A stretch of DNA of 64,000 nt from Candidatus Hydrogenedentota bacterium (GCA_034669905.1 JAXMOL010000032.1:25097-89096); one strand, 5' to 3'; counted from the first letter of the stretch, positions 2,476 to 14,078 are shown. Notes: generated by a model from the letters alone, not told the origin. Numbers and translations are program-made.

Positions 2476-3186
2476 ATGGTGGCACATGACTTTATCGAAG
2501 AGTCCGTAACCATACCCTGTGGCGACCGCAGCCTGGAAGGCATTTTGGCCTACCCGGAACGGGATAGCCCCAGACAGGGCGTGCTGCTCTTGTCACCCCA
2601 CCCCCACATGGGTGGCCGGATGGACAACAACGTTATCGAACACCTCGCCCGACGCCTCGCCGAAGCGGGCAGCGTTACCCTCCGCTTCAACTACGGCGGT
2701 GTGGGCGGCAGTTCCCTGGAACTACCAGAAGACGTCACCACGTTTGACTATTGGGGACGCATCGAAGCCGAGCAAGACTATCGCGCCGTCCTGCCCGATG
2801 TAATTGCCGCGCGGGATTTCCTCGTGCAGGCCCTTCCACCACGGACGCCAGTGGTCTATCTGGGCTACTCCTTCGGAAGTTGTATGGCGACGTTGTTGAC
2901 GGGCGTGTCCGCCCCCCACGCGCTCATCGCCATCAGTCCCCCGGTGAGCCGGGTTCGCTTTGAAAATCTCGACGCGTGTACCATGCCCGTGTGTTTCGTG
3001 ACCGGAGACCAGGATTTCGTATTCGACCCGGAGCGCTTCCGGGAGACCCGTGACGCTGTGCCCGGCCCCATAACCCATGTCCACCTGAACGGCTGCGACC
3101 ACTTCTTTCGGAAAGAAGAAGGACGGGTCTATGATGTACTCCGCGCCTTTCTCAAAGAAAATATTCTCTTCGGAGCACCACTATGA
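2476..3186 (+). CDS. Alpha/beta hydrolase
   Basis: PHPHMGGRMDN, LRFNYGGVG, nucleophile GYSFG, GDQD acid and DHFF His motifs. Confidence 0.85.
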   Translation: MVAHDFIEESVTIPCGDRSLEGILAYPERDSPRQGVLLLSPHPHMGGRMDNNVIEHLARRLAEAGSVTLRFNYGGVGGSSLELPEDVTTFDYWGRIEAEQDYRAVLPDVIAARDFLVQALPPRTPVVYLGYSFGSCMATLLTGVSAPHALIAISPPVSRVRFENLDACTMPVCFVTGDQDFVFDPERFRETRDAVPGPITHVHLNGCDHFFRKEEGRVYDVLRAFLKENILFGAPL

Positions 3187-3881
3187 TCGGCCTGCTTCTC
3201 TGCCTCTTCAGCCTCGCCACAACGCCAACGGCCGAGCCTGTCGTCGAACTGGCAGAGGCCACCCGCACCTACGACCTCAGCAGGGCACAAGCCCTCGTGG
3301 CCTCTCTGAAACAAGCGACGGATAGCGACTCCGTGGCCCTCCGGGTGAAGGCACACTTGCTCGTGGCAGAGCTGCTGCGCCTGGAGTTTTCCTACCTTCC
3401 CGCGACAGAAACCAAAACCCGGCGGGCCCTCGGGAAGCAGATCGATGCTGCCGCCGATGCCGGTCTCGCGGACCTCGATGGCCTGCCGGAAAGCTCAGAG
3501 AAACATCGCCTCAAGGCCGATCTGTTCGGCACAAAAATCCGCTCCACCTACCGTGCTGGAAAACTCAAGGGTCCATTGAACGCGGCCGTGGAGCGGGCCC
3601 TGCAGTTAGATCCGGAGAACGCGCGGGCCTATGTGACAAAAGCCAAGACCCTGCTCTTTCAGCCCTCCCCCACGGAAGGCGCACTTCAGGAAGCCCTTCG
3701 TCTTCTGAAGACAGCCCGCTCACGGGAGCCGACCCTCGAGCAAATCCGCCTCCTGCTGGCCTACGCCTACACACAAACAGGCGATACAGAAGCGGCCACC
3801 GAATGCTGGCAGCAATGCCTGCAGGAAAACCCGGATTGTCTACCCGCTGCCCGTGAATTGAATTCAGTCCGACCTGATTGA
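3183..3881 (+). CDS. Secreted TPR-repeat protein
   Basis: Signal peptide; TPR-like ALQLDPENARAY and CLQENPDC segments; ATGA overlap with the upstream gene. Confidence 0.7.
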   Translation: MIGLLLCLFSLATTPTAEPVVELAEATRTYDLSRAQALVASLKQATDSDSVALRVKAHLLVAELLRLEFSYLPATETKTRRALGKQIDAAADAGLADLDGLPESSEKHRLKADLFGTKIRSTYRAGKLKGPLNAAVERALQLDPENARAYVTKAKTLLFQPSPTEGALQEALRLLKTARSREPTLEQIRLLLAYAYTQTGDTEAATECWQQCLQENPDCLPAARELNSVRPD

Positions 3882-3964
3882 ACGCCCCCCAGCCCCCTCG
3901 GACTCCGGCGCTCCACCCGATGAAGCATTCCGCTACCGTTTCACGTCGGATACGATACCCGCAG

Positions 3965-4010
3965 AAAAAACAAAAAGGCCCAACGAGTCAACCGTTAACT
4001 CGTTGGGCCT
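3965..4010 (-). terminator. Intrinsic terminator (probable original host tRNA-Arg terminator; may also serve the convergent TPR gene)
   Basis: Perfect 13-bp inverted repeat AGGCCCAACGAGT (3976-3988)/ACTCGTTGGGCCT (3998-4010) followed by a T-tract on the minus strand. Confidence 0.8.
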
Positions 4011-4014
4011 GAAT

Positions 4015-4070
4015 TACTTAAATGGCGCGCCCGACAGGATTCGAACCTGTGGCCTCTTGCTCCGGAGGCA
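4015..4070 (-). repeat. att site: displaced 3' portion of tRNA-Arg (56-bp direct repeat of 10698-10753)
   Basis: Exact match TACTTAAATGGCGCGCCCGACAGGATTCGAACCTGTGGCCTCTTGCTCCGGAGGCA at both positions. Confidence 0.95.
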
Positions 4071-4182
4071 GACCTGATAGCCCCTCAGATTCCGCATCCA
4101 CTCTATAGATATGGAAAGTAGTGACTGCTGGCTAAAGAAGCATTGCACCAAGACTCAATAAGTAGTATAAACTTCTGGGATA

Positions 4183-4202
4183 TTGTTGCAAAATTGTTGC
4201 AG
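4183..4202. promoter_or_regulatory. Candidate integrase arm-type binding sites (left)
   Basis: Tandem TTGTTGCA with 11-bp period; 17/20 identical to 10618-10637 at the other end of the element. Confidence 0.6.
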
Positions 4203-4266
4203 CGCTATCAAGACAATATGATCTCTACCCACAAGAGAATACGTGTCTGACGCTCAATTGCACATC

Positions 4267-4295
4267 TTGATAGACTATTTGAAACTCCGTATACT
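4267..4295 (+). promoter_or_regulatory. Sigma70-type promoter of the cargo operon
   Basis: TTGATA (4267-4272)-N17-TATACT (4290-4295); GAGGGG RBS at 4346-4351. Confidence 0.7.
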
Positions 4296-4360
4296 TACCA
4301 ACTTAAAACCATCTATTCAACTCCATGAAATCGGTATGAAAATTTGAGGGGTACCTGGCC

Positions 4361-5098
4361 TTGTTCGATTACATCATGAGCCACCAATTTGCGTACTATG
4401 CATCCGGCACTCATTTGGACCCGGAGCCCAAAATTATAAGCGAGCTCCTTAACGCGTTTTCCGGTAAAGACTTAATCCCAACGACAGTAACAGCATTTCT
4501 GGTGGATACCACTGTAAAATCGAAATCAGAACTACATTTTGTTAGTTCAAATGGTGATTTGCGCCTCGCTTTCGAAGCGAAACGTATCATGCTACGAAGA
4601 CAATGTACTTCGGAACGGGACGCAGGAAACTCCGAAGACTTCTCCAGGGAAACCTGTGACTTGTTCTCTAGCCTTTTAGAGACCTTGCCAATTCCAGGCC
4701 ACCGACTAGCATACGTGGTTAATGGTCTCTTCCCCGAGTTTTCCGAAGACCAACTGTTGCATGCACGTCAAGAATTCCTGAACGACCTAGATTTCTATAA
4801 AGACTTTCCACCAAGCCGCTGGGAAACAAAAACGGTTACGAGGGTTGATAGGACTTTCGGTCAAAAGAGCGAAAAGATGAACGTACTAACAGACATCAAT
4901 CGCTCCCAAGGGGAATTCTTAGGTGCCGCAGAGCACGGACTCCAATTCGACAGAATTCAGTCCGAGATTGACATCAACACAACACAACATAATGAGATTG
5001 CCCGATTTGGTACTACAGATGTCGAACCATTCTTAAACGAAGCAATGACGCTAGCCACGGAACTAGAGACGCAAGTAGGTAGGCTACTCAATGTCTAA
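4361..5098 (+). CDS. Hypothetical protein, TIGR04255-like (putative chaperone/sensor)
   Basis: 245 aa alpha/beta pattern with HRLAYVVNG and C-terminal EIDINT motifs followed by an amphipathic helix, reminiscent of TIGR04255-type proteins; start is TTG 4361 or ATG 4376. Confidence 0.5.
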   Translation: MFDYIMSHQFAYYASGTHLDPEPKIISELLNAFSGKDLIPTTVTAFLVDTTVKSKSELHFVSSNGDLRLAFEAKRIMLRRQCTSERDAGNSEDFSRETCDLFSSLLETLPIPGHRLAYVVNGLFPEFSEDQLLHARQEFLNDLDFYKDFPPSRWETKTVTRVDRTFGQKSEKMNVLTDINRSQGEFLGAAEHGLQFDRIQSEIDINTTQHNEIARFGTTDVEPFLNEAMTLATELETQVGRLLNV

Positions 5099-5852
5099 AA
5101 AATTCTCGCATCCAAATTTGGACTACTTCAATCAAGCGCTAGCAACATACGTCGAGAGCGGTCACTTATTTCTCGACGAAACTTCGGATACAGTCGATCC
5201 TGGAAGTCTCCTCAAGTTCAAATTCAGAGAGCGATTCGAAAACCTTGAAACAAACTCCTTCAGACATTTCTTTGATGCTACCTCAGAGCCACTACATTTA
5301 GATGATGAGACTCAGTCGTTCTCGGAATATCATGATAAGAAGGCACTGCTTGCTGAGGCAGCAACCTCACAATCAGAAATTCGTCTAGAGTTTCTAAAGC
5401 AGCTTGAGCACCTGATAAGAAAGTCGGAATTCGAATTTGGCTTCAACACTCCTGCTGATGACTATGTAAGAAATGCTCTAAAAACATACGGCGTATTCCC
5501 CCGAGCCTGGTTAAACGAACTCTTCTTAAGATTATTTAACAAGCCCTCTGAACTCAGCGGACTTCTCAGGGTAATAGCGCACTTCGAGTACCATGAAATT
5601 AGCCCAGAAGGCCCGACAATGGCTGTCGCTGCTCTTTCCCACAAAGACCCAGACATTCGCGAATGTGGCATACGCTGTTTCGAGAACTGGGAAAACGCGT
5701 CGTCTATTGATGTACTCGAAAATCTTATGATTCCTGAGCCTTGGCTTCGGGAGTATTTGTCGGACGTTATATCGGATTTAAAGGGGCTCACTGAGAATGT
5801 CACTACTGATCAGAAAAATTCAACTCAGCAAATGGATGCAGAACGATATTAA
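5091..5852 (+). CDS. Hypothetical protein with acidic N-terminus and HEAT-like helical C-terminus (putative antitoxin)
   Basis: Overlaps both neighbours; ALSHKDPDIRECGIRCFENW is HEAT-like. Confidence 0.55.
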   Translation: MSKKFSHPNLDYFNQALATYVESGHLFLDETSDTVDPGSLLKFKFRERFENLETNSFRHFFDATSEPLHLDDETQSFSEYHDKKALLAEAATSQSEIRLEFLKQLEHLIRKSEFEFGFNTPADDYVRNALKTYGVFPRAWLNELFLRLFNKPSELSGLLRVIAHFEYHEISPEGPTMAVAALSHKDPDIRECGIRCFENWENASSIDVLENLMIPEPWLREYLSDVISDLKGLTENVTTDQKNSTQQMDAERY

Positions 5853-6294
5853 GAGAGGTGCCCCTCCTTCCGCAGATGCTATTACGCACTGCACGAAGAC
5901 TCAATATAACACCCTTTCCGTTTGGTCAATCAACGCCGATCACGACTTGACGGATGCCGTTTTGGCGATAGCCACTGGTGCACATCATCTCGAGACATTC
6001 GACGTGGTAAAATTAAACCGAAATTCGCTAGAGCAAGGGGGGCTTTCCATAGAAAACGTGCCTGGGGAGACTGCATATCACGATTTTATCCAGAAGCACT
6101 ACGACATTCAGAAGCTTGATATCCGCTCTTTAACTCTCTTATCTGAGGAAATAGTACGAGCAATTAGAGATGAACAATGTATCCGCTACACCAAAGGAGC
6201 GTTGAAAAAACTTCTGCGTGCGGGAATTGACGAAGGTAAGATTTCGTGTGATGATTTGGCACCTGACGTCAAAAAAATTTTTGTCGAGAGCTAG
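5797..6294 (+). CDS. Hypothetical protein, possible ADP-ribosyltransferase-fold toxin
   Basis: 165 aa; N-terminal strand with Arg (LLIRK), LSVW strand and HYDI strand, a pattern seen in ART-fold toxins (inference). Confidence 0.45.
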   Translation: MSLLIRKIQLSKWMQNDIKRGAPPSADAITHCTKTQYNTLSVWSINADHDLTDAVLAIATGAHHLETFDVVKLNRNSLEQGGLSIENVPGETAYHDFIQKHYDIQKLDIRSLTLLSEEIVRAIRDEQCIRYTKGALKKLLRAGIDEGKISCDDLAPDVKKIFVES

Positions 6295-6323
6295 AGGCAA
6301 TATTCTTTTACACGTCTACCCGC

Positions 6324-6644
6324 TTACGTCCTTCCACGCACCAACGCTTCTTGTCGATTCAAGTCCAGTTGTCCCTCTACGTACCCGTCAAGGTCAACCC
6401 GACGAAATAACACCTTCGACTTTCGCTCTTCGCCCAATTTCGCCCGCCTAATCTGCCCAGACTCCGACAGACTGTCGAGCATTCGAGGCGACATACGCAA
6501 GTACTCCGCGGCTTCTTCCCGCGTAAAATAGTTGGGCTGGGGAGGAACTCTACTATTCGTCGCGATTCGCATAAACTGCTCTTCAAGAACTTCTCGAAGC
6601 CGGTCTATGGACGCGGCCACTTCTTCTGGCACCACAACTTCCAT
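6324..6644 (-). CDS. Excisionase-like helix-turn-helix protein (HTH_17-type)
   Basis: YFTREEAAEYLRMSPRMLD...VLFRRVDLD pattern; strong GGAGG RBS. Confidence 0.85.
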   Translation of the reverse strand: MEVVVPEEVAASIDRLREVLEEQFMRIATNSRVPPQPNYFTREEAAEYLRMSPRMLDSLSESGQIRRAKLGEERKSKVLFRRVDLDGYVEGQLDLNRQEALVRGRT

Positions 6645-6658
6645 CTCGATTGCCTCCC

Positions 6659-6865
6659 TCAGAATTTCACGATATTGGCTTTGACCTGGCGGTGCTGGTC
6701 AATTAACTTCTTCACCCAATGTCGAAGGAGCTCGTCGACATCAACGCCCTTGTCCTTCGCGATAATGCCGAGTTTGGTTCGGTCCCAACTAGACACCGGC
6801 ACGGAGACATGTTGATTCGTCGCGTGAAGCGATACCTTCTTGTACTGCGCCTTCGCCTTAGCCAT
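6659..6865 (-). CDS. Small hypothetical protein, possible ribbon-helix-helix
   Basis: 68 aa, start overlaps the rep stop; strand-helix-helix pattern (VSVPV...LGIIAKDKGVDVDELLRHWV). Confidence 0.5.
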   Translation of the reverse strand: MAKAKAQYKKVSLHATNQHVSVPVSSWDRTKLGIIAKDKGVDVDELLRHWVKKLIDQHRQVKANIVKF

Positions 6866-8240
6866 GGGCCTGTGCTCCCTTCCAGCGTGCCACTACGCCC
6901 CAATCCTCGCCTTCGTCCACCCAGGGCTCTTCGCACGTCGCTATGAAGCTGTTCGGAAGCACTGCGCCGCCGTAGCTCACAACCCGTTGTGCGGCTTTCT
7001 TGGTGAACTTCTCACGAAACCCACTATCCCCCATGGAATCGATACCCCACTCAAGGACCTCTTGGGCGTGCACGCGAAATTCCTCCCGTGTCATGTGCAA
7101 CTCTTGAGTCAGGTCAGCGACGGCGGCCAATATGCAACCGCTTGCCTGTTTGACCAATCGGATTGGATCTTTACACATCCCTCGTTGCTTGCGCTCGACC
7201 GACTCCCGGGGCTTTTTCATCCATGACCGGAAAGCCTCTTGCACCGCAACCCATTCGGGCGCCGTCGATTGACGGGTCTGGTGATTGTTCTTCCGGTCTG
7301 GTTCCTCCTTAACGATACGAAACCAATCGCCGGTCAAATACGCAGCAAGGGCGGCACCCTTCGCGTAGAAGTCGCCCATGGTGTTGATACCAAGTTCTTT
7401 CAAGGCAGGTCGCCGCAACTGATATTCAACGCGCATGGCGTGGTCTGGACTTTTGCCCCAGCGCTTTTCAATCAAGTATTTCTCTTTCTCCAAATCGGGG
7501 TGGCCGTGTCGAACCTCATGCAGCTTGTCATAGATGCGCAGCATAATGTCCCCTTTCCCAACCGTCACCCCGGTCAGCTTGGAGCCATCCTCGTGGTAGT
7601 CTTTCTTCGTTGCTCGGGTAACACACTTTTTCTCCCAGACCATGCGTGCCAGGTCGGCAGTATCAATACCAGGCAAATCAGCGCAAATATCCAAGCGGCT
7701 GAATTTGTGCCAGAAGATGCGCCCGCCCAGGGCCTCTACGATGTTTCGGACGGTCGCCCAGGCACCATCAATACCATTGAGCATTAGAAAGAGTGAGCCG
7801 CATTCAACCATGACATTCGCATTCTGCTGGGCTTCGTCCGCCGTCGCCCCTTTCGTGAGCTTGAGTGTGATTCCACCACGCTTGAGGAAATAGGAATAGT
7901 AGATTCCTTTACCGCCTCCTGTGCCCTTCCCGCCTCCAGCGATGGCGAATACATGACCATTGATGGGGATGGTAATATCATGATGCTTTTCCTGGGCCTG
8001 CAATTTGCCAGAATCGAGAGCATGAAGAAGGTCCTCGAAGGGGAACTCATAGTCCCAGGTAACCCCAAGATTCCAGACCACCGAATCCACCCCGCCGCTC
8101 TCGAGTGGGTTGATTTGGCTATTTTGCAGGTGGGTGTTACTCGAACCAACCACCTGCACTTCTACACTGTCAGACTCGGCCAACAAGGCGGTCAGACCTT
8201 CACCATAGGGTTGTTTCTGTGTTATAGTCTCACCAGACAT
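6858..8240 (-). CDS. Rep_trans-family rolling-circle replication initiator/relaxase
   Basis: Motifs SRLDICAD, TGVTVGK, LRIYDK (catalytic Tyr) and RVEYQLRR; AAAGGAGG RBS. Confidence 0.8.
   Translation of the reverse strand: MSGETITQKQPYGEGLTALLAESDSVEVQVVGSSNTHLQNSQINPLESGGVDSVVWNLGVTWDYEFPFEDLLHALDSGKLQAQEKHHDITIPINGHVFAIAGGGKGTGGGKGIYYSYFLKRGGITLKLTKGATADEAQQNANVMVECGSLFLMLNGIDGAWATVRNIVEALGGRIFWHKFSRLDICADLPGIDTADLARMVWEKKCVTRATKKDYHEDGSKLTGVTVGKGDIMLRIYDKLHEVRHGHPDLEKEKYLIEKRWGKSPDHAMRVEYQLRRPALKELGINTMGDFYAKGAALAAYLTGDWFRIVKEEPDRKNNHQTRQSTAPEWVAVQEAFRSWMKKPRESVERKQRGMCKDPIRLVKQASGCILAAVADLTQELHMTREEFRVHAQEVLEWGIDSMGDSGFREKFTKKAAQRVVSYGGAVLPNSFIATCEEPWVDEGEDWGVVARWKGAQAHG
8125..8158 (-). 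other. Candidate double-strand origin (nick hairpin) inside the 5' end of rep
   Basis: 9-bp perfect inverted repeat TGCAGGTGG/CCACCTGCA with a loop reading ...GAGTAACAC on the coding strand. Confidence 0.5.
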
Positions 8241-9081: not shown

Positions 9082-9414
9082 CTAGGCCTTTTCAAGACTC
9101 TCGTTATCATCACTTATGCTCTCAGCCTTCCGACTGCGCTTTCGGGTAAAACGCGTCGGTGGCTCTTCATCCTCAAGTCGCTTAATTGGGAGCTTGCTTA
9201 TTACACCTCGTACCTTGTCCGGGTCAGCTCCAAACATTTCAATCAATGACTCTACTTGGTCAACATCCTGCCATAGCGCAATCAAACTCCGTTGCACGAC
9301 GAGTGACCGATTTAGTCCGACCGTGTCCGCGAAATTATCCAGCGCCTCTACGTAGTTCACCGGAAGTGAAATGCTCACGCTCACTTTTTCAACGATCTTG
9401 TCTCTCTTAGTCAT
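9082..9414 (-). CDS. CopG/ribbon-helix-helix-type regulator
   Basis: VSVSISLP...EALDNFA..VGLNRSLVVQRSL matches the RHH pattern; AGGAGG RBS. Confidence 0.75.
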   Translation of the reverse strand: MTKRDKIVEKVSVSISLPVNYVEALDNFADTVGLNRSLVVQRSLIALWQDVDQVESLIEMFGADPDKVRGVISKLPIKRLEDEEPPTRFTRKRSRKAESISDDNESLEKA

Positions 9415-9542: not shown

Positions 9543-10598
9543 CTATCCGAATCTATCTATGTCCTCGTCGTACTCCTGCAGCCCCGCATAGTGCTTGGCG
9601 GTCACATCAACCGAGCTATGGCCCATCCATTTGGAAATCTTGTAAATGCTCGTTCCCGCAATCGCGTGTTGGCTCCCGAAAGTATGCCGCATCAGCTGGA
9701 AGGTCGCCCGGGGAACGCCGGCAGTCTTCGCAATGGTCGCGAAGCTCTTGCGAGGGTCATAGCGATACCGATACTTCCCCTCATTCGGACGTGAGCTGGT
9801 CAACAAGTACCCTTCTCCCCCGTCCTGTTCTCCCAATACTTCATGTATCCGTGAACTCAAGGGGACCGAACGTTCCTCGCTGTCCTTTATTTCGAAGCCA
9901 TTGCTATTGCGGACTCGCAGGAGTTTGTTTTCGAAGTCGAACCACTCCCAACGCGCACAGACGATTTCCTTCTTTCGGAGGCCGCAATAGATGCCTAGCA
10001 GGCATACCCAGTGCAACTGACGACTGTGTTCTTCCGCCGCGAGAAGCAGCTTCCCGATTTCATCTTGACTGAGAAAATCCGGCGTGCTCTTTGGAATCTT
10101 GAACCGAGCGACGTTTAGCACAGGATTCGTGCCGTTGAAAAGCCCGAGTTTCAGGGCGTGATTGTAAATGGCCTGTAGGTGCCTGAGCGCATCATTAATT
10201 GATTCATCCGCCAGCGGCCTCCCACGCATTCCCTTGCGTTTTAATATAGACTTGAATCGCTCGATATCCCGTGGCCGAACATCGCCCAATCGCTTCGCAC
10301 CAGTGAACTCCAACAATTGACGCCAGTAGTTCTTTTCAATCGCGATGGTGGATTCTCGCTTGTGCTGTTCTGCCCAGGCGAAGTACTCACGCTCGAATTC
10401 TTCCACTTCTGGATTACGTGACTCCCGGAGAAAACTCCCTGTATCACGCCGGTATTCGGCGATGCGTTCCTGACGGACGAACTCCGCATCCCGCTTCCTT
10501 TCGACGCCTAAGGATTCCCATTCTGTCCGCTTGTCCAGGCGGTACTTCCACCACCAGACCCGGCCACGCTTGATTAGTGTTCCGTTCGTTATCCCCAT
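9543..10598 (-). CDS. Tyrosine recombinase/integrase
   Basis: GLRKKE (Arg I), FQLMRHT (H-x-x-R with Gln at the first position), MGHSS and KHYA (catalytic Tyr); N-terminal arm-binding-like beta domain. Confidence 0.95.
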   Translation of the reverse strand: MGITNGTLIKRGRVWWWKYRLDKRTEWESLGVERKRDAEFVRQERIAEYRRDTGSFLRESRNPEVEEFEREYFAWAEQHKRESTIAIEKNYWRQLLEFTGAKRLGDVRPRDIERFKSILKRKGMRGRPLADESINDALRHLQAIYNHALKLGLFNGTNPVLNVARFKIPKSTPDFLSQDEIGKLLLAAEEHSRQLHWVCLLGIYCGLRKKEIVCARWEWFDFENKLLRVRNSNGFEIKDSEERSVPLSSRIHEVLGEQDGGEGYLLTSSRPNEGKYRYRYDPRKSFATIAKTAGVPRATFQLMRHTFGSQHAIAGTSIYKISKWMGHSSVDVTAKHYAGLQEYDEDIDRFG

Positions 10599-10637: not shown

Positions 10638-10653
10638 TTTTCGCCAAAAACAC

Positions 10654-10693
10654 AAAAAAGGCCCAACGAGTTATGTACTAACTCGTTGAGCCT
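10654..10693 (-). terminator. Element-borne replacement terminator downstream of tRNA-Arg
   Basis: 15-bp stem (10659-10673/10679-10693, one G-U pair in the transcript) followed by U6. Confidence 0.8.
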
Positions 10694-10705
10694 GAAATAC
10701 TTAAA

Positions 10706-10782
10706 TGGCGCGCCCGACAGGATTCGAACCTGTGGCCTCTTGCTCCGGAGGCAAGCGCTCTATCCAGCTGAGCTACGGGCGC
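10706..10782 (-). tRNA. tRNA-Arg (anticodon CCG)
   Basis: 77-nt cloverleaf GCGCCCGTAGCTCAGCTGGATAGAGCG-CTTGC-CTCCGGA-GCAAG...GGTTCGAATCC...CGCGCCA with encoded CCA. Confidence 0.97.
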
Positions 10783-10992: not shown

Positions 10993-13977
10993 TCAGGCGA
11001 CGTGCTGTTTGGCGAGGGCTGTTTCAATGACCTGAAGCAATTGGGCCATGTTGAAGGGCTTACGCAGGATATCGCGTACGCCACTGCCGGAAGCTTCCCC
11101 TATCTCCAGGTTGGAGGTAGGCCCGGCCAGCATAATTACGGAGAGGTGGGGCTTGCGCTTTTGAATCTCGTCGACGAGGGCCTGGGGCGTATTTACGCCT
11201 GGAATGGCGCCATCAAGCAACACCAGATCCACCGGATTGGCAATAACTTCGGCAAGGGCTTCCAAGCCGTCTGCTGCGGTGCAAACGGTGTAGCCACGAT
11301 TCTGGAGGGCTTCGGTCAGCACGTCGCCCAGCGCGGGATCATCGTCTACCAGCAGAATCCGGCTATCGGGCTTGCCACTGGCTTGTGGCCGTGGCCGCAC
11401 CGGTGCGGGCGCGGGGGCTGACGCGGCGGGAGGGCGTTCTGCTGTCGGTGCCGGTGGAGTGGCTACCGGGGACGCGGGCTGCCATGCCGGCGCTTCGGCG
11501 GTGGCAAAACCGGGTACCTCTGGCGTACGCTCCCGACGGGTGTCTGGCGCACTATCGAAGGGGGAAATCTGCTCTCTGGGCGCTTCCGGCACGGGTCTGG
11601 GTGCGGCTGCGACGGGTTCGGGTGTCGCGGGCTTCGGCGCGGCGGGATGCGCTGACTCCGCCGTTGATACGGCACTTCGGCGCCGTGCTTCTGCATCGTC
11701 TTGCAGGGCCGCTGCCACTTCGGGCACCAATCGGGGGTGTTCGGCTCGGGAAGGGGATTCCAACGGAGGCCGGGTACCGACCGCTATGGCTTCGGCGGGA
11801 CGGGCCACGGCTTCGTCAATCCGGGTCTCCACTTTGTCGGTGGAAATGGGCAGGGCGACGGTACACGTGGTCCCTATCCCTTCCTGACTGTGAAGGGTAA
11901 TTGAACCCCGGTGGGCTTCGATAATTCCATGGCAAACCGCGAGGCCCATTCCCGTACCCTCGGCGCCTGGCTGGGTGGTAAAGAAGGGCTCGAAGACCTT
12001 GTCCATAATATCGGCGGCAATACCCTGCCCCGTATCGATAATCTGTACAAGTACGGCGGTGCGGTCTTGATTGGGTCGCACCCGAACGGTGAGCTTGTCA
12101 CCCTGACGGGTCATGGCCTGTTCCGCGTTCTTCAGCAGGTTCTGGAAGACCTGGTCGAGTTGCATACGGTCTACAGGAATCTGCGGGAGATCCTGGGCGT
12201 ATTCTTCGACCAGTTGAATGCCTTCTTCGGACAATTTCTGACGCACACGGTCCACCGAGGTCTTCACCAGATAGCTCAGGCGATTGGGCATGAGCTGGGG
12301 CGGATTCGGGCGGGCGAACTGGAGCAGGTCGCGCAGGATGCCACAGGCCCGTTGGCTGTGTTCCACGATGACTTCCAGGGCTTTGCGGTCCTCGGGGCGC
12401 TCCGTGTTGGCGAGCAGCATCTGGGCCTTGCCGGAAATCACCGCAAGCGGGTTGTTGATCTCGTGGGCCGCGCCAGCAGCCATTTTCCCAACACTGATGA
12501 GGCGTTCGGTGCGCCGGTCATGGCGGTGGCTGAGTTCCTGCTTCCATACGGCCGCCGCGAGCGACTCCGCTTCGTCGTAGACACCGCGGACGGCGCGACA
12601 ACGTGCGAGCGCGGCACCGGCGCTCTTTACGAAACGCATGAGATCACTCAGAAAACTATCGGAGAGGTTGGGCGAATTTGCCCCCCCCCTGAAAATCAAC
12701 TGGCCCAGGCTACGGCTGCCATCCAACAACGGCAGGGCGATAAAGCCATGTCGATGGGCGGGTCCGGTCATATCTTTCGCGGTGACACCACTTTTTTCCA
12801 ACGTGCCAATAAGCGAATCCAGGGACTTTCCATCGTCTGCTTCCCCACTGGCATCCTTGCCATAGACGCTCTCCGGCTCTTCTTCCAGACTGCGCCAACG
12901 GAGCACCACGGAGGTGTCGCTCGCCTGATCGGTCAGATAGCACAAGCCGACCGGAATTGCGAAGGCCTTGCGAAGACCATCGACAAATACCGCAAGCTGC
13001 GCTGCGGGGGCCATGCCGGGCAACATCCGCTCATGCAAGGTGCACAGGGACTCATAGTAATTTCGTTCAAAGCGAAGGCGCGACGATTCCGTACGCGATT
13101 CCGTCGTGGCGGGCGTTTCCGCGGGTAAGGTATCCGAGCTGTCGGACGGCGTGGAATTGGCCGTACCATCCCGGAGTAATTCCAGCACGTCGACCCGCTC
13201 CATCCCCAGCCGCAAATAGCGCTGCTCATCGAGGGACGCCACCCGCTCCTGGGGTGGCGACTCCAGGGCATCACCATGGGCGAGGAAATTCGCCAGGGAT
13301 ACGATCTCGATCAATTCAATGGGATAGGGTGTGGCGTCCAGCGTTCCTGGGGGATGGTGGTGAAGCCAAATGGTCGATACCACCGAGGCCGGTGCGCCCC
13401 AGGCATCGGCGAGCCATTTACCGGCCACCGTATGATCCGCCCCTAACTCACGGCGTTCGGCTTCCAGGGCGTAGAGCCCCTGCTGCCGTACGAGTTCCAG
13501 GGCGCGGGTAAAGCCACCCGGAGTAACGCGATCGAGGGCGGGCTTGCCAATATCGTGGAGCAAGCCTGCCACATACGCAAGGGGCTGGTATCGGCTCTCA
13601 ATCTTTCGGGCGATGCGGTCCGCATAGCCCGCCACAGAAAAGGCATGGGCCCAGAAGGCTTTCATATCGAGGCCGTGGCTGCGTGACCCGTCAAAAAGTG
13701 CAGGAGCCACCCGCTTAAAGGTCAGCTCCACGACCCGGGACAAGCCCAGGGCCTTCAGGCGATCTTCGAGGGGCGTCCCTTCCGGGCAGTGACACTCGTC
13801 GGCGGAAGCGGCCAGAAACTGACGCATCATGGCTTCGTCAAACTCGGCGATCGCGGCCAACTCGCTCCAGTTCACCGTCCCGGCATCGAGCGACGAGAGG
13901 ATCTCGCGCGCAATGTGGGGCAGCACGGGCAGTTGCTGCAATGAGCTTATTCGCTGTTTGACGTCAGAATTTGTCAT
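10993..13977 (-). CDS. HDOD-domain hybrid histidine kinase (HDOD-GAF-like-HisKA-HATPase-Pro/Ala linker-REC)
   Basis: LPVLP, AGLLHDIGK, LHHHP (HDOD); AHEINNPL H-box; DTGQGI and GTGMGL; C-terminal receiver. Start could be 13977 or 13989. Confidence 0.85.
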   Translation of the reverse strand: MTNSDVKQRISSLQQLPVLPHIAREILSSLDAGTVNWSELAAIAEFDEAMMRQFLAASADECHCPEGTPLEDRLKALGLSRVVELTFKRVAPALFDGSRSHGLDMKAFWAHAFSVAGYADRIARKIESRYQPLAYVAGLLHDIGKPALDRVTPGGFTRALELVRQQGLYALEAERRELGADHTVAGKWLADAWGAPASVVSTIWLHHHPPGTLDATPYPIELIEIVSLANFLAHGDALESPPQERVASLDEQRYLRLGMERVDVLELLRDGTANSTPSDSSDTLPAETPATTESRTESSRLRFERNYYESLCTLHERMLPGMAPAAQLAVFVDGLRKAFAIPVGLCYLTDQASDTSVVLRWRSLEEEPESVYGKDASGEADDGKSLDSLIGTLEKSGVTAKDMTGPAHRHGFIALPLLDGSRSLGQLIFRGGANSPNLSDSFLSDLMRFVKSAGAALARCRAVRGVYDEAESLAAAVWKQELSHRHDRRTERLISVGKMAAGAAHEINNPLAVISGKAQMLLANTERPEDRKALEVIVEHSQRACGILRDLLQFARPNPPQLMPNRLSYLVKTSVDRVRQKLSEEGIQLVEEYAQDLPQIPVDRMQLDQVFQNLLKNAEQAMTRQGDKLTVRVRPNQDRTAVLVQIIDTGQGIAADIMDKVFEPFFTTQPGAEGTGMGLAVCHGIIEAHRGSITLHSQEGIGTTCTVALPISTDKVETRIDEAVARPAEAIAVGTRPPLESPSRAEHPRLVPEVAAALQDDAEARRRSAVSTAESAHPAAPKPATPEPVAAAPRPVPEAPREQISPFDSAPDTRRERTPEVPGFATAEAPAWQPASPVATPPAPTAERPPAASAPAPAPVRPRPQASGKPDSRILLVDDDPALGDVLTEALQNRGYTVCTAADGLEALAEVIANPVDLVLLDGAIPGVNTPQALVDEIQKRKPHLSVIMLAGPTSNLEIGEASGSGVRDILRKPFNMAQLLQVIETALAKQHVA

Positions 13978-14078
13978 GGCCTCTTGCATCACAACGAGTC
14001 GAATGGGTGTGTTGAAGTGCTCTAAGGCGTTCACCCTACAACACATTCGTGCAGTTCGCTCGTGTGACTCTTTGCCTA

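Follow-up and report, generated by a model that had tools for sequence, protein, structure and literature searches.

A conserved three-gene cassette combining a putative remote TIGR04255 relative with a predicted ADP-ribosyltransferase-fold protein: a possible tripartite anti-phage system carried by mobile elements

Satellites and integrative mobilizable elements carry defense systems in cargo positions, and the locus described here raises the question of whether three overlapping genes in such a cargo slot encode an anti-phage system. The window analyzed, that is, the whole stretch of 64,000 nucleotides from a Candidatus Hydrogenedentota bacterium (GCA_034669905.1, JAXMOL010000032.1:25097-89096), contains a 6.7-kb element integrated in a tRNA-Arg gene. 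Its features, numbered from the first letter of the window, are the following:

3962..4070, minus strand: att repeat beside the cargo, comprising the 3' part of tRNA-Arg and a downstream terminator-like hairpin (3976-4010)
4267..4295, plus strand: candidate sigma70 promoter of the trio, TTGATA-17-TATACT, 10/12 consensus positions
4361..5098, plus strand: ORF1, 245 aa, TTG start, putative distant TIGR04255 relative
5091..5852, plus strand: ORF2, 253 aa, variable N-terminal tail and conserved C-domain
5797..6294, plus strand: ORF3, 165 aa, predicted ADP-ribosyltransferase (ART) fold, R6-S41-H101
6324..6644, minus strand: excisionase-like HTH protein (PF12728, E 1.5e-7; TIGR01764, E 1.4e-5, below cut-off)
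6858..8240, minus strand: 460-aa putative replication initiator or relaxase (phrog_33635 "endonuclease", E 1.1e-9)
9082..9414, minus strand: small ribbon-helix-helix-like regulator (PF01402, E 0.016, below cut-off)
9543..10598, minus strand: tyrosine integrase (PF00589, E 6.7e-18)
10706..10782, minus strand: intact tRNA-Arg(CCG), the integration site, found by ARAGORN; overlaps the repeat copy 10645-10753

The layout agrees with the initial annotation: the three ORFs overlap by 8 and 56 bp and lie beside att, a 109-nt direct repeat at tRNA-Arg(CCG) (3962-4070 and 10645-10753, 89% identity, spacing 6683). The annotation had also called the trio AT-rich, which holds in relative terms (its GC content is 0.45; the element backbone has 0.533 and the host about 0.60, its two flanks measuring 0.614 and 0.594). 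The promoter that it had proposed plausibly corresponds, by its sequence, to the sigma70-like candidate at 4267-4295, the best of seven promoter-like sites in 3900-6700, where shuffled sequences give 3.5 +/- 1.7. The start of ORF1 in the protein collection is the ATG at 4376 (240 aa), and the alignments of its relatives begin at the TTG.

The integrase, the regulator, the putative initiator, and the excisionase are all encoded on the strand opposite the trio. The 460-aa protein has no match in a Pfam search and carries motifs that we take to be Rep_trans-like. As no capsid or conjugation genes were found among its ORFs, the element may be a satellite or a mobilizable element. The att duplication runs about 60 nt beyond the tRNA 3' end and takes in the terminator hairpin, and the changes in its stem are compensated between the two copies. 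In five genomes of the same genus, homologs of the host genes on either side of the element do not lie next to each other, so that this comparison says nothing about an empty att site; homologs of the genes at 3183-3881 and 10993-14046 are approximately 2.1 Mb apart in a complete genome of the genus (G068), and the tRNA integration site may also be a point of rearrangement. Neither an excision joint nor variant letters were found in four sequencing runs, from one study, covering the stretch, and a search for RNA data sets containing it listed none.

The trio is conserved well beyond this element. We found 1070 relatives of ORF3 (E <=0.001) among representatives of clusters at 50% identity and fetched 100 loci through ORF3, near-duplicates included (85 distinct ORF2 ends of 97). 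The three genes stand together in the same order in 80 of the 81 loci with at least 1350 bp upstream, the exception being decayed, and ORF2 is still visible in 18 of 19 shorter loci. By their annotation, these loci span Bacteroidota, Desulfobacterota, Planctomycetota, Bacillota, and Pseudomonadota. The distribution is sporadic: the trio occurs in 2 of 135 genomes of the host phylum, source genome counted, and in 3/301, 4/301, 14/251, and 2/291 genomes of other samples, with the seed genome included in every count. It was also found on plasmids of 4-8 kb, where it is almost the sole cargo, as it is on the 6.7-kb element, and behind the lysin gene in Acinetobacter prophages. Many copies lie between chromosomal housekeeping genes. 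The mobile or defense setting proposed by the initial annotation applies to 16 of 36 larger loci in a tally based on crude gene calls and without a background control: ten have restriction-modification, toxin-antitoxin, Wadjet, or HNH genes among their nearest called neighbors, and six more have a phage gene, an integrase, or an IS; the remaining 20 have neither.

Searches for a name returned nothing meaningful for the trio in Pfam, NCBIfam, and PADLOC, and PDB sequence searches gave no match; the 2023 version of PADLOC gave no match for the three proteins and weak, unrelated ones among 19 relatives. ORF1, ORF2, and ORF3 match phrog_19817, phrog_21208, and phrog_10743, respectively, PHROG families with no function assigned, and the ESM Atlas neighbors of ORF1 and ORF3 are unnamed clusters. 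A scan of viral contigs gave 57 pattern matches, none of which was confirmed, and DNA of the Klebsiella trio did not match E. coli genomes. The literature searched, in which few subscription papers were covered and whose supplementary prediction lists may hold the family, contains no description of the trio; ART or chaperone systems are not mentioned in the portion of PMC13586616 consulted. The trio thus appears to be unnamed, as the initial annotation had anticipated, and apparently a variant of tripartite toxin-antitoxin defense.

The initial annotation had assigned an ART fold to ORF3, and the predicted structure points the same way. The model is confident (pLDDT 97.6), and most of the 50 matches listed by a wide fold search are ART-fold proteins. 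The best ART match has a Z of 6.2 (rmsd 3.2, 85 aligned), a modest value relative to the caution level of 8 of the tool, and AvrPphF, RES, DarT, Tpt1, and Tse2 are listed as well. Foldseek gave no E below 0.001 and ranked Tpt1 first, no sequence or profile match to solved ARTs was obtained, and none of 138 family members searched matched the Pfam RES or DarT families. Single scores being modest, it is the agreement across the match list that argues for the fold. S41 and H101 are conserved in 138/138 members and R6 in 132/138. In the model, they lie on strands 1, 2, and 5 (residues 3-8, 39-45, and 101-105), the strands on which ART triads sit according to the part consulted of 10.1101/2020.07.21.169896. 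By strand position in the predicted model, ORF3 thus has the split beta-sheet and the triad strands of an ART, with the strand-5 Glu of the R-S-E clade replaced by His; position 103 is D in 115 members, N in 16, and E in 4. With His instead of Glu on strand 5, NAD+ hydrolysis is as possible as transfer. ORF3 may be an ART-fold effector.

Several of the RES (VPA0770, MbcT, ParT), DarT, and Tpt1-type proteins are toxins of toxin-antitoxin systems, as we propose for ORF3. The fold matches are similar for VPA0770 (Z 5.2, rmsd 3.9, 104 aligned), DarT (Z 5.2, rmsd 4.0, 103 aligned), and Tpt1 (Z 5.1, rmsd 3.7, 94 aligned); the RES and DarT antitoxins, Xre and DarG, are absent from the trio, and the strand-5 residue of ORF3 is His. 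Tse2 of Pseudomonas aeruginosa (Z 4.5, rmsd 3.8, 103 aligned, 16% identity) has a triad that we take to be Arg-Ser-His. Tse2 is delivered by type VI secretion and is paired with one immunity protein; the neighbor survey of 36 larger loci showed no secretion genes around the trio.

ORF2 consists of two parts with distinct conservation. Its N-terminal tail (approximately residues 1-95) is unconserved, acidic, and Ser/Thr-rich, whereas the C-domain (approximately 96-232) is conserved (column conservation of 0.19 vs 0.54). The acidic N-terminus noted by the initial annotation is present, but its HEAT-like helices are a label given by eye that has no Pfam match. The C-domain is predicted to bind ORF3: the complex scores 0.85, against 0.01 for the best control, with at least 96% of contacts in agreement between runs and partner pLDDT of at least 68. 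The mark applied to this score is reached by 116 of 157 solved pairs and 2 of 215 mismatched pairs. A PDB sequence search found no solved homologs of ORF2 or ORF3, which makes it less likely that the score reflects memorized structures. The contact between antitoxin and toxin that characterizes type II systems is thus found for ORF2-ORF3 as a prediction. The interface involves the invariant E198, W218, and Y222 of ORF2 and R130 and T132 of ORF3. Interface residues of ORF2 are more conserved than the rest of the protein (0.66 vs 0.52), whereas those of ORF3 are not (0.45 vs 0.47), and the confident ORF3 interface (9-14, 34, 62-68, 130-135, and 157) does not include R6, S41, or H101. ORF2 may accordingly be an antitoxin or an adaptor. 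No fused, longer forms of ORF2 were found among 7998 candidates, which is weak evidence.

ORF1 appears to be a distant member, by remote sequence similarity, of the uncharacterized TIGR04255 family. The similarity claimed by the initial annotation is below detection with the family HMM, which matches two of 69 ORF1 relatives (best E 1.8e-4), but it emerges when the ORF1 profile is compared with an alignment of 20 TIGR04255-type proteins (prob 77, E 2e-5, 163 columns; unrelated controls, 0.2 and 1.7). In the ORF1 model (pLDDT 95.3), helices pack against a long antiparallel sheet in a saddle-like alpha/beta arrangement. The best fold match is the McsB kinase domain (Z 8.3, rmsd 3.8, 172 aligned); others are TBP (Z 6.9, rmsd 5.1, 163 aligned, and Z 6.7), rolling-circle initiators (Foldseek E 4.7e-5, TM 0.30), and viral TBP-like proteins. 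No known chaperone is among the top fold matches listed. The SecB or PsbP/Mog1 fold that had been suggested is not borne out in that form, neither being among the 50 matches listed in the two fold searches, and SecB was not found by sequence search either. By eye, each half of ORF1 has a strand-strand-strand-strand-helix order, which we take to be that of the SecB monomer, and a remote link to SecB may exist on this basis; the signal for internal duplication is weak (prob 4.5, E 0.009). ORF1 is acidic (pI 4.9, 38 D/E vs 24 K/R). It may act as a sensor or chaperone, and it would likely be the phage-sensing controller of the trio.

In a sample of 201 genomes from one large phylum, the TIGR04255 family was identified in 21, at 23 loci. 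At 21 of them it heads a coupled trio, followed by a middle and a third gene; one locus has no trio and one is cut. Pfam names none of the third genes. By their motifs, we take 11 to be R/S ART-like, four MazF/PemK-like, two peptidase-like, and one HEPN-like, and three more, longer and with an HTH-type middle gene, to be MazF/PemK-like also. The ORF3 profile shows no similarity to the 11 R/S proteins (prob 0.2), so that their ART label is based on motif alone. The middle genes often start with long variable stretches, as judged by eye. Those of three loci (L122, L127, and L139) match the C-terminal part of the PADLOC candidate PDC-M32A (best E 1.2e-8). At two TIGR04255 trios (L119 and L120), the third gene matches phrog_11836, a PHROG family with no function assigned, and is presumably a papain-like peptidase candidate. 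The subfamily of ORF1 itself seems to swap effectors: L118 (G348:C16:23478-26774) has an ORF1 homolog (E 7.7e-8), then a 216-aa protein, then a 143-aa gene that we take, from its motif, to be HEPN-like.

Conversely, the gene preceding ORF2 varies. Among 20 further ORF3 loci, 19 are readable, two of which repeat earlier loci, and L147 was left out. The preceding gene is of ORF1 type in two, a canonical TIGR04255 gene in five, and a third remote type in seven (prob 67, E 5e-5 against ORF1); it is absent in three, and the remaining two are a decayed locus and a distant ORF3 relative without ORF2. L162 (G1431:C3:726500-729796) lacks ORF2; the gene in front of its distant ORF3 relative (E 3.5e-8) is unrelated and encodes 359 aa. 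In four independent pairs without the first gene (L112/L116, L113, L146, and L154; the length of L144 was left out), the ORF2 tails measure 42-64 aa, against 74-131 aa in 74 trio rows. If the earliest possible start codon is used instead, two of the four short tails lengthen to 74 and 83 aa, and deletion of ORF1 could itself clip the start of ORF2 and shorten the tail. The short-tail pair of L113 (G249:C1:2306278-2309673) lies between genes that resemble, by eye, a DNA methylase (type III mod-like) and a type III res gene.

Loss patterns across the trio loci are mixed. In phage B1251, ORF3 is cut or missing and ORF1 and ORF2 are kept, and eight phage records match only the first 52 residues of ORF3. 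ORF3 is likewise lost or cut next to ORF1 and ORF2 at L157, L159, and L160, and ORF2 alone is kept at L111. The Acinetobacter phages of L108 and L109 display several states behind the lysin gene: the trio may be whole, may have ORF3 truncated after approximately 52 residues, or may lack its 5' part. L111, L112, and L116 share one chromosomal site, flanked by a ferredoxin-like and a MarR-like gene; two of the contigs have ORF2 and ORF3 there and the third has only ORF2, and both forms occur in G260. Two loci show the reverse: at L024, a single stop interrupts ORF2 at codon 143 and ORF3 is intact, and at L088 an intact ORF3 accompanies a remnant of ORF2, ORF1 being gone. An intact ORF3 beside a broken ORF2 argues against a freely toxic ORF3, except where the operon is not expressed or folding of ORF3 depends on ORF2. 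The role of ORF2 as antitoxin put forward by the initial annotation is thus favored by the predicted binding and weakened by these two loci, whose pattern fits silencing, a folding requirement like that of CmdT, or an activating role of ORF2.

Two known systems resemble the trio. CmdTAC (PD-T4-9) also comprises three genes, an ART-fold effector, a middle gene with an unstructured tail, and a third component proposed as sensor, as described in the portion consulted of PMC11618068. However, the triad of CmdT is H-Y-[E,D,Q] whereas that of ORF3 is R-S-H; CmdC is SecB-like, and the 245-aa ORF1 gave no SecB match among the 50 listed; the unstructured part of CmdA is C-terminal whereas that of ORF2 is N-terminal, its C-terminus being conserved and predicted to bind ORF3; the gene order is reversed; and PADLOC gives no match for the trio. 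As the triad and the polarity of the tail differ, the trio is not a CmdTAC in the reversed gene order to which the initial annotation pointed. DS-42 (PRO1, DefensePredictor) is a validated three-gene E. coli system, scored as defensive, that encodes 238-aa and 190-aa hypothetical proteins and an MBL-fold hydrolase (PMC13092281 and its tables S6 and S8, insofar as consulted). By eye, its first gene is similar in size to ORF1 and its second has a low-complexity N-terminus, but the latter shows no visible likeness to the ORF2 C-domain, and the 165-aa, ART-like ORF3 has no MBL match. DS-21 was rejected as the same system because it consists of other proteins with a PD-(D/E)XK effector. Azaca was also rejected: PADLOC gave no match, and a single relevant listing groups it with nuclease-NTPase systems.

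In the reading that we prefer, the trio is a conserved mobile cassette encoding a tripartite, controller-antitoxin-toxin-like anti-phage system with an N-terminal addiction tail; taken as a whole, it is a credible proposal that falls slightly short of probable. That the trio is some kind of defense cassette with an ART-fold effector is, by itself, quite probable. By its predicted fold, ORF3 would be an NAD+-using toxin, with NAD+ itself, RNA, DNA, or protein as possible substrates, and ORF2, by its predicted binding, would likely keep it off. ORF1 would hold the unconserved tail of ORF2 until displaced by a phage product; the exposed tail would then lead to destabilization or remodeling of ORF2, and the freed ORF3 would arrest the infected cell. 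The working principle would be analogous to that of TAC systems, built from other parts. This reading draws on the order of the trio together with its carriage by plasmids and prophages and its defense or mobile neighbors; on the ART-fold list, the conserved residues of strands 1, 2, and 5, and the ORF2-ORF3 complex; on the loss or truncation of ORF3 beside a kept ORF2 (B1251, L157, L159, L160, and L111); on TIGR04255 genes, which head 21 of 23 trios and precede ORF2-ORF3 homologs in five loci; and on the short tails of the four pairs. Against it stand L024 and L088, an interface located off the triad and not extra conserved on the ORF3 side, the modest ART Z and Foldseek E values, top ORF1 matches that have nucleic-acid-binding saddles among them but not a known chaperone, a tail comparison with n=4, and the 20 of 36 loci with neither defense nor mobile neighbors.

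Part of this contrary evidence would be explained if the trio were a defense system in which ORF3 depends on ORF2 for activation or folding and ORF1 is a brake that masks ORF2 via its tail until a phage removes it. An intact ORF3 beside a broken ORF2 (L024 and L088) and the predicted docking site away from the triad residues agree with such roles, and there is a precedent in CmdT, whose folding depends on CmdA and which, by itself, is neither soluble nor toxic (PMC11618068, as far as consulted). Yet four lineages retain ORF2 and ORF3 with no first gene; with ORF1 as the sole brake, such cells would die, and we consider this arrangement unlikely. The TBP, viral TBP-like, and rolling-circle initiator matches suggest instead that ORF1 could be a nucleic-acid sensor or regulator, whose saddle would bind phage DNA or RNA or the operon DNA and signal to ORF2-ORF3, the tail being a linker rather than an addiction tag. 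These matches are, however, middling (5-12% identity), ORF1 is acidic, and long variable starts are frequent in middle genes behind TIGR04255, making such a role distinctly improbable.

An addiction or maintenance module of the mobile element, devoid of anti-phage role, would account for a trio that is nearly the only cargo of the 4-8 kb plasmids and of the 6.7-kb element; it accords poorly with the many copies that neighbor restriction-modification and Wadjet genes or are embedded among chromosomal housekeeping genes, with the pair between type III mod-like and res-like genes, and with the defensive score of DS-42, whose layout is similar. We judge it a shade less probable than a nucleic-acid sensor. 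Lastly, the ART likeness of ORF3 might be an artifact of a common fold, or ORF3 might be catalytically dead, the trio then having another job: the best Z lies within the chance range and solved ARTs give no sequence or profile match. The variety of ART families in the match list, together with the R, S, and H residues conserved at the triad strands, renders this very improbable.

TIGR04255 is not named in the main texts of the literature searched but stands in the prediction tables of PMC13092281, in the portion consulted; a link of the family to defense has therefore already been predicted, without a mechanism. The new observations are TIGR04255 at the head of coupled trios with varied putative effectors and the short tails of the four headless pairs. 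A broader generalization is possible, although we lean against it: TIGR04255-like proteins would form a second widespread class of toxin-antitoxin controllers, apart from SecB-type chaperones, which grip the N-terminal addiction tails of interchangeable antitoxins and subject five or more kinds of effector to a common phage-sensing switch (R-S-H ART, other R/S ART-like, MazF/PemK-like, peptidase-like, HEPN-like, and possibly the DS-42 hydrolase). In that generalization, the trio would represent the branch whose effectors form a hitherto undescribed R-S-H ART family, with more than 1000 clusters.

Small enterobacterial plasmid versions of the trio make direct testing in laboratory E. coli feasible. 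If the preferred reading is true, it would give a function to the TIGR04255 family, and ORF3 would define a new ART family, with approximately 1070 clusters at 50% identity and His at a catalytic position. It may also explain DS-42, for which we did not find a mechanism described. Control resembling chaperone addiction would then have arisen with a different fold, the opposite tail polarity, and a swappable effector.
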